Source: Escherichia coli (lineage in GTDB: Bacteria; Pseudomonadota; Gammaproteobacteria; Enterobacterales; Enterobacteriaceae). From it: 64,000 nt of DNA. The position numbers and the translations under genes were made by a program. Shown in pieces: positions 3,153 through 16,130 of this stretch. The notes under the pieces are model-generated. The model was not told the origin of the DNA. It saw only the letters and a list, made by a program, of their open reading frames with translations, and ran no database searches. Position 1 is the stretch's first letter; each line of letters begins with the position of its first letter. The stretch is from NCBI RefSeq assembly GCF_044324875.1, contig NZ_CP172185.1. One strand, given 5' to 3'.

Positions 3153-4097
3153 ATGAGTCCTGATAATATCAGTTCTGCTGTCAATCGCTTCTCAGGTTGG
3201 CCATCTAATGATCCTCTAAAAAAAGATAAAGAATCAATGACATCACCCATGACTGTGCAAGTAATAAAGATGATTGCCGCCATCCTTGATCCACATCGGA
3301 TAGTCGTTGGAATCGATACACTTTATACAACGCAGCGCGAAACATTTACCTCAGAGAGTCAACAGCTCATTGAATCAGCATTGCAAACACTTCATGTGAT
3401 GAATTTAAATAACCTGGAAACAAATCTCGATGAGGAAGGTCACTATCTGGCTTTTGGATATAACGTTGACACTCCTGACAGAATAACCGTTTCTGCTTAT
3501 AATGAAAAAAAGCCTGGCTGCTATGGTCAATGTCTTTTAATACAGGATGACGAAACAGACTTGTTTAACCTGATAAAAGTTAAAATTTTTGAAGCCAGGC
3601 ATAATTATGTCGCTCAATTGATGAGCGATCCGGGATTTATGTTCAAATTTAGTTATAGCGCTCAACAAAATAGATTAGAACCTCATCTTCTGGTTCCCAC
3701 TTATTTCCCTCTAAAAACAAACGAACCGGTTACGCAAGAGGATGTACTGTTACTTTATCGTTTCTTTAAAATGGATGGTGATTTTAATATATTAACATCA
3801 GATGAATACATGAGTATCATGACACCTCTGATGAAGTGTGAGCGCAGCATCCACGACCACAACAGGTATGTGACGGGCAAAGATACCCTTCTTCTGGACT
3901 ATCCTCCTTCTGGTAACCAGATATATTTCCATATTTTTCCTGACGAATCAGCAACACTAGTCCTTTATTTTTCAAACAATGACATTGAATGTTTCGTCTT
4001 TGAAAGAGATATTCCGAGCCAGTATCGCTTTTTCAAAATGTTTACCAATCTGGCACTGGTTATTGATCAGTTAACCGATGCCAATCAAATACTTTAA
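3153..4097 (+). CDS. hypothetical protein, 314 aa, low-GC, no recognisable family
   Basis: Intact ORF in the track. The sampled stretch is about 40% GC against about 50% for flanking genes; polar Ser/Thr/Pro-rich N-terminus; no P-loop or HExxH motif seen by eye. Confidence 0.5.
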   Translation: MSPDNISSAVNRFSGWPSNDPLKKDKESMTSPMTVQVIKMIAAILDPHRIVVGIDTLYTTQRETFTSESQQLIESALQTLHVMNLNNLETNLDEEGHYLAFGYNVDTPDRITVSAYNEKKPGCYGQCLLIQDDETDLFNLIKVKIFEARHNYVAQLMSDPGFMFKFSYSAQQNRLEPHLLVPTYFPLKTNEPVTQEDVLLLYRFFKMDGDFNILTSDEYMSIMTPLMKCERSIHDHNRYVTGKDTLLLDYPPSGNQIYFHIFPDESATLVLYFSNNDIECFVFERDIPSQYRFFKMFTNLALVIDQLTDANQIL

Positions 4098-4177
4098 TTT
4101 TTATATATTCCCTGTGGCAAATATTGCTAAACAATGCCCGGGGATTAATTTTTATTACTCACGGAAAGATTTAAATA

Positions 4178-4600
4178 ATGATCCCATCTCAAATCTCTTT
4201 CAACACCCTTCCTGTCAATGCAACATACGCTTCAGAGACAACAGTTGACACACAAAAATTCTCTGACATCCTCTACTCAGCGGGGTGTTCCCTAAAGGAT
4301 CTGGCTTATCTGAGCAGATGTCTGGCATCAATACATCCGACTATCGCCAAAAACATTTATGAAACAGAAAATCTCAGCGATCAAAAATTACTACATATTG
4401 ATTGCCGTAGTACAAATGAAATCAAGATAAATATCTTTTTTGGTCAACAACGAGAAGGATTAATTGAAATTAGTTCTGACACAGTCATTTTTTCGATACT
4501 GTCTTCATTGATTGACTCCACCATTTCTAAATTTCAACACCAAAACCCCGTTAACGGTTCTGTAAATCCTGACCTATTGTATGAGGATTATACTGATTAA
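4178..4600 (+). CDS. hypothetical protein, 140 aa, low-GC, no recognisable family
   Basis: Intact ORF 80 bp downstream of the 314-aa ORF on the same strand; Ser/Thr-rich N-terminus; AT-rich context. Confidence 0.45.
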   Translation: MIPSQISFNTLPVNATYASETTVDTQKFSDILYSAGCSLKDLAYLSRCLASIHPTIAKNIYETENLSDQKLLHIDCRSTNEIKINIFFGQQREGLIEISSDTVIFSILSSLIDSTISKFQHQNPVNGSVNPDLLYEDYTD

Positions 4601-5147
4601 ATCCCTCCTGTCGCGAAAAATGGCCTGCGTTATTGCCAGACGTAATAAAACTTTTGATTAACGTTTCTCGTACTGGTAGCACCTTCATGTACTTTTCTTT
4701 TTTACGAAAAATCAAAAGAGCTAACAAAGGTCATAATTCGCATGAATCATTAATTATTTGTTATTTTCAACATTATTTTTACATTAAGCAGAGATGAATT
4801 GCAGTGAAATTCGACTTAACTTTTATGAAATGCATTTACTCATGGCTAAAGCCACGTCACAAAAATGCAAATTAGAAGTAGATCACAAATATCTCAATAC
4901 ATCAAATCAAGTTAATTTTAAAAATTTAATATTCATGACATTAGTTGACATAACACACTGAATTATAATGAGAATTTGAAAACACACTTTAAACAATCAT
5001 TTCCCGAAAGACATTTTGAAAATAGATCAATTGCAACATTACGGTCAGATAAAGACACTCCTGTGATATTAAACCTGTGCCGTTATGAACGGCCATAAAT
5101 ACGACGTGTGTAACTTATTTTACTCTCTGTCTTACAAAGGATTACCC

Positions 5148-5597
5148 ATGAAGAAAGCAACACTTGTGATTGGCGTTATTGGCGCGGACTGCCATGCAGT
5201 AGGCAATAAAGTTCTGGACCGCGTTTTTAGCAACCATGGCTTCAGAGTCATTAATCTGGGCGTAATGGTCAGCCAGGACGAATATATTGATGCTGCCATT
5301 GAAACTGGTGCTGACGCGATTGTCGTCTCCTCTATCTATGGGCATGGCGATATCGATTGTCTGGGCATGCGCGAACGCTGCATTGAGCGTGGGCTGGGTA
5401 ACATCCTGCTCTATGTGGGCGGTAACCTGGTGGTCGGAAAACATGACTTCGCTGACGTGGAAACCAAGTTCAAAGAGATGGGATTTGATCGCGTCTTTGC
5501 CCCAAGTCATGACTTAGAAGATGTTTGTCAGCTGATGGCCCACGATATCAACCAACGTCATGACGTTGATACTCGCATTCTTGAAGAGGCAATCTGA
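5148..5597 (+). CDS. glmS: glutamate mutase (methylaspartate mutase) S subunit, B12-binding (clostridial GlmS/MutS; not glucosamine-6-P synthase)
   Basis: [38 protein letters not shown]... closely resembles clostridial methylaspartate mutase sigma subunit, including the DxHxxG cobalamin-binding motif; start chosen at the Met matching the homolog N-terminus. Confidence 0.85.
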
Positions 5598-14579: not shown

Positions 14580-14588
14580 GGAAAATGA

Positions 14589-15191
14589 ATGGAAGCGCGA
14601 ATTTCAACTGAACGGCATGTGCAGCGCCAGCAGAAATTGAAGGAACAGGTCGATACGCGCATCGCGGCGGCGATAGAGAAAAAAGGGATTTTGATTGTTT
14701 TCACCGGCAATGGCAAAGGGAAATCCACTGCCGCGTTTGGTACTGTGACGCGCGCGGTGGGTCATGGCAAAACGGTGGGGGTTGCGCAGTACATCAAGGG
14801 GCAATGGGACAACGGCGAATACAACCTTCTCCAGCCGCTGGGGGTTGAGTTTCATATTATGGGAACCGGTTTTACCTGGGAGACACAGAACCGGCAAGCG
14901 GATATCGACGCGGCGAAAGAGGTCTGGTCGGAAAGCAAACGGATGCTGGCTGACAAGCGTTACGACTTAGTGGTGCTTGATGAGCTGACCTATATGCTGG
15001 CTTACCATTATCTGGATACCGAAGAAGTGATCGCTTCTCTGCAAAACCGCCCGGCACAACAAAGTGTCATTGTCACCGGACGCGGTTGCCACAGTCAGAT
15101 ATTAAAAATGGCGGATACGGTCAGCGAAATCCGCCCCGTCAAACATGCTTTTGATAACGGCATTCAGGCCCAGCCGGGTATCGACTGGTAA
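14589..15191 (+). CDS. cob(I)yrinic acid a,c-diamide / cob(I)alamin adenosyltransferase (BtuR/CobA/CobO family)
   Basis: ...GILIVFTGNGKGKSTAAFG...GHGKTVGVAQYIKG...VVLDELTYM...VIVTGRGC...SEIRPVKHAF... is near-collinear with E. coli BtuR. Confidence 0.85.
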   Translation: MEARISTERHVQRQQKLKEQVDTRIAAAIEKKGILIVFTGNGKGKSTAAFGTVTRAVGHGKTVGVAQYIKGQWDNGEYNLLQPLGVEFHIMGTGFTWETQNRQADIDAAKEVWSESKRMLADKRYDLVVLDELTYMLAYHYLDTEEVIASLQNRPAQQSVIVTGRGCHSQILKMADTVSEIRPVKHAFDNGIQAQPGIDW

Positions 15192-15194
15192 TAA

Positions 15195-15226
15195 CTGCGC
15201 CTGGCATCCCGCCAGGCGCAGGTTTT
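15195..15226. terminator. convergent (bidirectional) intrinsic terminator between the adenosyltransferase gene and the LysR gene
   Basis: ctgcgcctggc-atccc-gccaggcgcag followed by gtttta on the + strand; both stop codons abut the hairpin. Confidence 0.6.
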
Positions 15227-16130
15227 ACATCTCCTGCGGTACAACCGATTTCGCCAGCAACCATTCACGAAATTGCTGCAAGTGCGGTGAGTCAGACTTC
15301 TCTTCCTGCCACGTCATAATAAAACGATTACCGGTACGAATAGGCACATCACAGGGGATCACCATATCGCCACTATCCAAATCATGTTGAATAGCGAAAC
15401 GTGGTAACAGCGCCACGCCGAGATTAGAGCGCACGGCGGCAATCAGCATTGAAAGCAAATCGAAACGTGGTCCGTTGTTGACCAGCGGACTGCTAACGCC
15501 AGATAAGGCAAACCACTCTTCCCAGCCAGTAATACGGGTACTTTGATGCAGAAGTGGTAACTCTGTAAGCAGTTCTGCCACTGACAGTTTTTGATCGGAC
15601 ATTGCAAGCAAACTGCCGCTGCATACCGGCAAAATCTCCTCATCAAAGAGATATTCTACTTCCGCCCAGGGCGCGCAAAAATTTTCGCGCATAATGACAG
15701 CATCGTACTCCCGATTAAGAAAATCGCCGTTATTAGCTAAAGAGTGAATATTAACAATAATATCGGGATGTAACTTTGTGAATTCATGTAAATTTGGGAT
15801 TAACCAGTGGGTACTAAACGTAGGATTCACGGCAAGTTCAATAACCTGAACCGTAGGCTGCCAGGTCATAATGGTATTGGTATCGCGTTCCAGCTTATTT
15901 AATGTTTCTTTTACTATCCCCAGGTAATACTTCCCTGCATCATTAAGAAAAATACGTTTTTTAGAGTGTGAAAATAACGGAGTATGTAAAAATTCCTCCA
16001 GCGCACTCACTTGTCTGAATACTGCACTTTGGGTCAACGCTAACTCCTCTGCCGCTTTGGTATAACTTTCATGACGTGCGACGACCTCAAAAGTCACCAG
16101 CAGCTCCGTTTTAGGTATTTTTCCTCGCAT
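15225..16130 (-). CDS. LysR-family transcriptional regulator
   Basis: N-terminal HTH (...FEVVARHESYTKAAEELALTQSAVFRQVSALEEFL...) and typical about 300-aa length. Confidence 0.85.
   Translation of the reverse strand: MRGKIPKTELLVTFEVVARHESYTKAAEELALTQSAVFRQVSALEEFLHTPLFSHSKKRIFLNDAGKYYLGIVKETLNKLERDTNTIMTWQPTVQVIELAVNPTFSTHWLIPNLHEFTKLHPDIIVNIHSLANNGDFLNREYDAVIMRENFCAPWAEVEYLFDEEILPVCSGSLLAMSDQKLSVAELLTELPLLHQSTRITGWEEWFALSGVSSPLVNNGPRFDLLSMLIAAVRSNLGVALLPRFAIQHDLDSGDMVIPCDVPIRTGNRFIMTWQEEKSDSPHLQQFREWLLAKSVVPQEM

Follow-up and report, generated by a model that had tools for sequence, protein, structure and literature searches.

Where does the carbon of glutamate go in those strains of Escherichia coli whose genomes appear to carry it as far as citramalate? 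The locus that raises the question lies in a stretch of E. coli DNA of 64,000 nucleotides (RefSeq assembly GCF_044324875.1, contig NZ_CP172185.1; 'the window' throughout), in which genes for glutamate breakdown by the methylaspartate pathway stand between cydA (779-2350, minus strand) and sucD (16796-17665, minus strand), flanks that enclose 12 open reading frames (ORFs). The cluster there is real, intact and correctly placed. An initial annotation, made from the letters alone, had recognized glutamate mutase S, L and E, methylaspartase, an AtuA-like pair, a DAACS symporter, a FumA-like hydratase, a corrinoid adenosyltransferase and a convergent LysR regulator, and had read from them a route from glutamate via 3-methylaspartate and mesaconate to citramalate, with carrier, cofactor and regulator modules attached; the ORFs are found where it put them and its reading is sustained by equivalog scores far above the cut-offs. 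Where it erred was in stating that no citramalate lyase is encoded here, and its own fallback, that the last step might fall to an island gene of unknown function, proves the better guide, the AtuA/DUF4387 pair being recognizable by homology as the citramalate lyase CmlAB (PDB 9ERQ and 9EVF). The cluster itself is a known one, published in 2015 and annotated in RefSeq; the pathway gap of 2015 is closed by structures released in 2025.

The AtuA-like ORF, cmlA (9694-11064, plus strand; about 456 aa; PF07287), and the DUF4387 ORF, cmlB (11061-11378, plus strand; about 105 aa; PF14330), which begins within the last 4 nt of cmlA, align end to end with chains A and B of 9ERQ and 9EVF (E 1.5e-290 and 5e-57, respectively), with identities of about 90% for CmlA and about 84% for CmlB. 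Against Pfam the first gives a weak family match to AtuA (6e-19, 68.5 bits) and the second a DUF4387 match at 3e-39. The depositors named the chains 'Citramalate lyase, subunit A (cmlA)' and 'subunit B (cmlB)', and the two entries, released in October 2025, are entitled 'Citramalate lyase - AMPPNP - citramalate complex' and 'Citramalate lyase - ADP - pyruvate complex'. Judged by its sequence, the pair is closely similar over its full length to the solved citramalate lyase, is predicted to share its fold, and is to be assigned as the two-subunit enzyme CmlAB, the putative last enzyme of the route. No homolog of the citrate-lyase-type subunits CitD, CitE or CitF was detected among the 12 island ORFs in NCBIfam or Pfam. 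Because the pair matches 9ERQ and 9EVF, the island would encode every step between glutamate and its products, pyruvate and a C2 unit. The two crystal complexes, AMPPNP with citramalate and ADP with pyruvate, show that nucleotide binds CmlAB, and these ligand pairs lead us to infer a part for ATP in the reaction, perhaps via an acyl phosphate. The solved protein, whose source organism is named in neither PDB file nor in the search output, we take to be that of Raoultella planticola. It is the R. planticola enzyme that was used as Cml in a report that growth of E. coli on mesaconate, and labelling from it, depended on Cml, and the same single preprint gives the C2 unit as acetate (bioRxiv 10.64898/2026.01.16.699985).

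How would the substrate of such a lyase arise? Gene identities were judged by NCBIfam equivalog models against their curated cut-offs, in bits, with Pfam used for the AtuA/DUF4387 pair. The opening step would be import of glutamate by a DAACS-family dicarboxylate/amino-acid:cation symporter (11539-12819, plus strand), a presumed glutamate importer that is DctA- and GltP-like at 312 and 302 bits, under both cut-offs. Glutamate would then be rearranged to (2S,3S)-3-methylaspartate by the adenosylcobalamin (AdoCbl)-dependent glutamate (methylaspartate) mutase, of which glmS (5148-5597, plus strand) encodes the B12-binding subunit S (NF002612, 252.7 against a cut-off of 110; TIGR01501 above cut-off; the DxHxxG motif present in the translation as DCHAVG) and glmE (7004-8449, plus strand) the catalytic subunit E (TIGR01503, 863.5 against 390). 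The accessory or reactivating protein GlmL (glmL, 5597-6985, plus strand; TIGR01319, 884.8 with a family cut-off of 204; NF040745, 507.3 against 475) would keep the mutase active. Its coenzyme AdoCbl would be supplied from scavenged corrinoid by the island's CobA/CobO-type cob(I)alamin adenosyltransferase (14589-15191, plus strand; NF004637, 296 against 185; TIGR00708, 246.6 against 167.75), which scores as a cob(I)yrinic acid a,c-diamide adenosyltransferase. Removal of ammonia by 3-methylaspartate ammonia-lyase (mal, 8449-9690, plus strand; TIGR01502, 543.9 against 286; full-length match to PDB 1KKO, E 3.6e-270) would leave mesaconate, which the class I fumarase FumD, in a predicted mesaconase role (fumD, 12927-14579, plus strand; NF011921, 1279.6 against a cut-off of 1060), would hydrate to (S)-citramalate for the CmlAB heteromer to split into pyruvate and the C2 unit. 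The starts of glmS (5148) and of the symporter gene (11539) are corrections taken from RefSeq. Of the enzymes that define the methylaspartate pathway, glutamate mutase S and E, methylaspartase and the predicted mesaconase are encoded here, as is, by homology only, citramalate lyase; behind the steps up to citramalate stand strong homology and published FumD biochemistry, and behind the predicted lyase step stands homology to a solved and named enzyme.

A comparable cluster in E. coli O157:H7 had been pointed to at the outset, and the likeness is close. The interval 2300-16800 (about 14.5 kb) matches annotated E. coli chromosomes at identities ranging from 98.2% for O157:H7 to 99.4% for TUM14771, the closest strain for the allele of the window, with identical gene calls, and FumD is 98.4% identical to its O157:H7 ortholog. 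Kronen and Berg, who described the cluster in O157:H7 and other enterobacteria, named the extra fumarase FumD and found that it prefers mesaconate 2-3 fold; by their figure the cluster is carried by 26.5% of E. coli and numbers GltP, CobA and a LysR regulator among its members, and they flagged the DUF1446 gene after mal as being of unknown function (PLoS One 2015, PMC4682846). With coverage of 80% or more of the query as the threshold, 1117 of the 5426 complete genomes of E. coli (20.6%) have the island. All ten catabolic and regulatory genes are full length in the window, and the ratio of nonsynonymous to synonymous substitution (dN/dS) in these ten is 0-0.2 in comparison with O157:H7, at a synonymous divergence (dS) of 0.03-0.11, and 0.02-0.11 in comparison with Citrobacter and Salmonella arizonae, where dS is saturated.

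What company does the lyase keep elsewhere? One genome per species was scanned, giving at least 556 cmlA loci; the counts that follow come from the best 80, with scorable loci as denominators (L030 and L048 start too near cmlA to be scored for glm or mal neighbours). A CmlB-like ORF comes directly after CmlA in 70 of the 71 loci with enough downstream sequence, methylaspartase is near cmlA in 63 of 76, and the complete set of glmS, glmE and mal is present in 50 of 64. There is, then, genomic association of cmlAB with citramalate-producing enzymes, and in the window the pair is directly downstream of mal. CmlA proteins at least about 60% identical to that of E. coli are encoded in Riflebacteria, Lentisphaerae and Accumulibacter, and across phyla the lyase genes are conserved at about 55-90% identity. 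All 14 Enterobacterales clusters have the DAACS symporter and none of the 66 others does, while a LysR gene is in 11 of the 14 Enterobacterales loci; the conserved core unit is thus glmS-glmL-glmE-mal-cmlA-cmlB, to which carrier, LysR and adenosyltransferase are enterobacterial additions.

Two further observations belong to this survey. Either 3' of cmlB or 5' of glmS, 42 of 57 scorable non-enterobacterial loci (for example L007 at 11677-12618, L006 and L009) have a conserved gene whose product, of about 315 aa, contains a Walker A motif (GxxGxGKST) and is only faintly similar to ABC ATPases, and this P-loop protein was found in none of the 14 Enterobacterales clusters. In L029, L059, L064, L067, L071, L072, L083, L089 and L093, cmlA-cmlB is without glutamate mutase or methylaspartase neighbours, as in Shewanella, where it lies between hrpA and protease genes; the genes surrounding such loci gave no functional clue, and the lyase in them may serve other citramalate sources or substrates.

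How might the cluster be controlled? Little space separates the plus-strand genes, and the last of them is followed by a strong, GC-rich hairpin (15195-15221; an inverted repeat with an 11-pair stem, 9 of the pairs being GC), common to them and the convergent lysR, that would act as a bidirectional terminator between the adenosyltransferase gene (cobO) and lysR. The nine genes from glmS to that for the adenosyltransferase are probably one operon, transcribed from the AT-rich spacer ahead of glmS and presumably controlled, through a T-N11-A box at 5014-5034, by the convergent LysR-type regulator (15225-16130, minus strand), which is GcvA-like (NF008352, 221 bits, below the cut-off of 288). The glmS upstream spacers of nine enterobacterial loci were aligned. 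The 21-nt box, TTTTGAAAATAGATCAATTGC (plus strand, 114 nt upstream of glmS, of the form TGA-N7-TCA, a T-N11-A dyad such as LysR regulators bind), is identical in eight other loci and has 1 mismatch in K. oxytoca, the spacer around it being unalignable. It is present in all aligned loci with LysR, 8 of the 11 Enterobacterales loci that have the gene, and degenerate or absent in 3 Enterobacterales loci without a LysR gene, and is offered as a candidate operator for the regulator, whose gene is convergent at the far end and not divergent from glmS. Its half-sites are FNR-like but with a spacing of 5. A 14-nt repeat, ACAAATATCTYAAT, found upstream of both glmS and lysR, was entertained as a shared operator and dropped, the copy on the lysR side not being conserved in other genera and the repeat probably due to chance. 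A perfect FNR consensus, TTGATTTATATCAA, lies at 2685-2698 in shared DNA upstream of cydA, near the edge of the conserved flank and still within it (homology to K-12 runs out at 2723).

That the window carries the known B12-dependent conversion of glutamate to pyruvate and a C2 unit, in a probable LysR-controlled operon long settled, here in reduced form, between cydA and sucD, we regard as likely as a whole. A good deal has nevertheless to be set against it. The CmlAB assignment depends on PDB molecule names, entry titles and one preprint with the R. planticola enzyme, a primary paper on CmlAB not having been found in literature searches; the role of ATP in its reaction and the identity of the C2 product are inferred rather than established, as are the substrate of the carrier, the operon structure and the LysR operator. 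The promoter scan did no better than on shuffled sequence, overall counts of promoters and terminators alike equalling those for shuffled sequence, and of what the scans gave our argument draws on two terminators alone, the cobO/lysR hairpin and that of sucD. FNR control was considered and rejected, there being no site upstream of glmS at 2 or fewer mismatches and the sole perfect one being that in the cydA region, and neither a cobalamin riboswitch nor any other RNA gave an Rfam match at E <=1 in 2300-16850. The common position of the cluster across genera, taken up below, could reflect repeated homologous replacement through conserved flanks, not vertical descent. Finally, O157:H7 strain ATCC 700728 did not grow on glutamate, was not stimulated by it and had no methylaspartase activity, with or without three cobalamins (PMC4682846).

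Is the route, then, cut short or dead? Extracts of O157:H7 had no detectable citramalate lyase activity and no expression of the cluster, the fate of citramalate being left open in 2015 (PMC4682846), and for want of that activity Kronen and Berg raised the prospect that the cluster stops at citramalate or mesaconate, with the acid made and excreted, for instance as a host-directed metabolite, or with release of ammonia, and with no carbon passing to pyruvate or acetate; several distant clusters with no fumarase within 10 kb could be counted on the same side. Yet extracts in which the cluster was not expressed are uninformative about a missing lyase, and with the lyase genes placed directly after mal, kept across phyla to the extent given above and under strong purifying selection, a route that ends short of pyruvate seems to us very improbable. 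Could the cluster instead be a cryptic, decaying and non-functional remnant in E. coli? No expression has been found, a search of the literature for transcriptome evidence in O157 having yielded no expression data, and no laboratory condition switches the cluster on; relics of hutH and rtcB adjoin it, IS1-truncated and frameshifted versions exist, as in strain VE-T9, and E. coli does not synthesize B12 de novo. Against these stand ten ORFs that are full length here and in 1117 genomes, an upstream 21-nt element invariant across genera and, between lineages separated by a dS of 0.03-0.11, dN/dS values of 0-0.2, and since purifying selection is seen on every step a dead remnant is argued against; it can be called improbable.

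A different doubt concerns age. The cluster had been presented as an island standing in place of mngR-mngA-mngB, and this holds to the extent that mngRAB, which 3884 of 5426 E. coli genomes possess, is not present in the window between cydA and sucD. One might add for a recent genomic island, brought in by an unknown insertion event, that GC content falls to 0.34-0.39 in the 2.5 kb nearest cydA. However, the catabolic genes, at 0.50-0.56, are typical of E. coli, only 2500-5000 being AT-rich, and as the initial annotation itself had rightly reported there is no integrase or recombinase among the ORFs of the segment (all of which are assigned elsewhere or orphan), no tRNA in the segment searched and no convincing junction repeat at its ends; in mobility genes, composition and distribution this is not an integrase-mobilized genomic island. 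Three Citrobacter species, Salmonella enterica subsp. arizonae, Pseudescherichia vulneris and Escherichia sp. ESNIH1 also have the cluster between cydA and sucD, and one flank is visible in S. diarizonae, Citrobacter R56 and K. oxytoca. In comparison with O157:H7 the dS of its genes is like that of the flanking cydA, sucD and sucC (0.02-0.07), and in strain 7/2 and about 134 genomes the island coexists with what it was supposed to have displaced, being followed by an intact rtcB and then by mngB-mngA-mngR (L098, 17087-24088). Relics of hutH and rtcB in the window, moreover, speak of loss, not gain. A recent replacement of mngRAB is very improbable on these grounds; the better reading is that the cluster has long been settled between cydA and sucD in Enterobacteriaceae, and to call it an island in place of mngRAB is misleading.

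What the window retains of its past is found on the sucD side. In MS6198 and about 144 genomes the island is followed by the hut operon and then rtcB (L099, 8576-18484). The 665 nt between lysR and sucD in the window are made up of hutH-like and rtcB 3'-end fragments, colinear with MS6198. Alignment to MS6198 places decayed hutH-like (HAL/PAL/TAL) ammonia-lyase fragments at 16401-16594 (minus strand): 15101-16538 is colinear with MS6198 across lysR and into the HAL gene there (8576-10246) at its 3' end, and 16534-16594 matches positions 9057-9117 of the same locus. At 16598-16691 (plus strand), abutting the sucD-side junction, is an RtcB-family C-terminal relic with an internal deletion, matching the intact rtcB of 7/2 and MS6198 and the rtcB pseudogene of VE-T9. 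Because the hutH and rtcB relics remain, deletion is to be preferred to insertion, and the simplest reading is that the configuration of the window arose by deletions from a larger ancestral mosaic. Histidine degradation yields glutamate, and because of this the hut operon and the glutamate cluster, where both are present, could form one catabolic supercluster.

The limits of the variable DNA need adjusting also. The cluster had been placed correctly between sucD and cydA, with limits of 3153-16130 that followed the ORFs and are somewhat too narrow. By blastn, homology to the K-12-type locus ends at 2723 and resumes at 16693, just short of the sucD terminator hairpin (16703-16720), and comparison with K-12-type, TPR-type and hybrid loci gives a variable segment, without strand, of 2724-16692 between the conserved cydA-side and sucD-side flanks. 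Homology to TPR-type loci, the TPR gene being in the interval in 1113 genomes, ends at 2988, so that against these the segment runs from 2989.

Other versions of the interval may be put on record. In VE-T9 (L002, 11262-12603) an IS1 insertion/deletion truncates cmlB and joins an rtcB fragment and mngBAR, and hyp140, one of the two orphan genes considered next, is frameshifted. The Citrobacter version (L015, 13287-14288 and 17994-19666) has glutaminase A between carrier and fumD, and a uroporphyrinogen-III methyltransferase (SumT) and a PocR-like AraC regulator beside sucD; that of Salmonella arizonae also has a PocR-like regulator (L022, 16845-17747), and E. coli is without all three extra genes. 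A divergent Escherichia contig (L011, 9880-12562; cydAB about 88% identical) has between cydA and sucD a homolog of the other orphan, hyp314, at 64% identity and an unrelated 258-aa orphan, and no glm genes.

The two orphans, hyp314 (314 aa; 3153-4097, plus strand; GC about 0.35-0.39) and hyp140 (140 aa; 4178-4600, plus strand), point the same way and lie in the AT-rich DNA that separates glmS from the promoter region of cydA. Both went unmentioned in the initial annotation, of which the start, 3153, is the start of hyp314. Neither has a match in Pfam, NCBIfam, PADLOC or PHROG. Among 5.8 billion proteins hyp314 has 5 clusters, all at least 64% identical and confined to Escherichia; homologs of hyp140 are in E. 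coli and Shigella only, with an allele of about 85% identity at the same position, and neither is in any other genus among the loci compared. They accompany the island in 1134-1138 genomes, nearly every island-bearing E. coli, and evolve faster than the catabolic genes (dN/dS 0.37 for hyp314 and 0.21 for hyp140). Does hyp314 correspond in E. coli to the P-loop gene (product about 315 aa) seen in non-enterobacterial clusters? BLASTP gave no similarity and the idea was rejected. An AlphaFold2 model of hyp314, built with 6 close homologs, had a mean confidence (pLDDT) of 43.7 and is unusable. The two genes look like a separate, locally evolving module.

Why should any of this matter? In more than 1100 complete E. 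coli genomes, what would be the last enzyme of a complete amino-acid fermentation route goes unrecognized under the RefSeq labels 'acyclic terpene utilization AtuA family protein' and 'DUF4387 domain-containing protein', and the first of these names is misleading for cmlA. About a fifth of E. coli strains, O157:H7 among them, and many other enterobacteria are predicted to have a B12-dependent route from glutamate to pyruvate and acetate, and the invariant operator-like box together with the LysR gene provides a handle for finding the condition that induces it. The cydA-sucD interval is best looked on not as an insertion site but as a mosaic of modules (the orphan pair, glm, hut, rtcB, mng and TPR) that have been lost differentially. 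A much longer chain of suppositions can be hung on these facts, and as a whole we find it rather doubtful: that CmlAB is an ATP-using C-C lyase which phosphorylates the carboxymethyl arm of (S)-citramalate and yields acetyl phosphate and pyruvate; that with Pfl and AckA this would give B12-scavenging E. coli a redox-neutral, ATP-yielding fermentation of glutamate and, in the approximately 144 genomes with an adjacent hut operon, of histidine; that the island LysR would switch the operon on via the 21-nt box in response to a gut signal missing from laboratory media; and that AtuA-family proteins in general would be ATP-dependent lyases cutting acetate units from tertiary hydroxy acids.

How does the cluster compare with systems already known? 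Those of Riflebacteria, Aminicenantes, Lentisphaerae, Clostridia and other non-enterobacterial groups share the order glmS-glmL-glmE-mal-cmlA-cmlB; most have the P-loop protein of about 315 aa and many a GntR gene, whereas DAACS and LysR, and usually the adenosyltransferase, are lacking from them. Pseudomonas AtuA, of acyclic terpene utilization, belongs to the same Pfam family as CmlA (PF07287), the match being weak and the gene context different, and we know of no reaction established for AtuA itself. The methylaspartate cycle of haloarchaea likewise employs glutamate mutase and methylaspartase (PMC4682846), but there mesaconate is turned into mesaconyl-CoA for acetate assimilation, and neither mesaconase nor citramalate lyase is involved. 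There is also the clostridial methylaspartate pathway of C. tetanomorphum and C. tetani, in which glmS-glmL-glmE-mal, followed as here by mesaconase and citramalate lyase, serve the same chemistry of glutamate to pyruvate, acetate and ammonia (PMC4682846). The Clostridia use a two-subunit mesaconase, a CitDEF lyase with acyl carrier protein, CitCXG and a GntR-type regulator, in contrast to the single-chain class I fumarase as predicted mesaconase, the unrelated AtuA/DUF4387 lyase and the LysR-type regulator of the window. Closest of all is the FumD cluster of O157:H7, with the same genes, including the DUF1446 gene that its authors flagged, in the same order at the same locus (PMC4682846); there is no structural difference between the two, and the cluster of the window is another allele of it.

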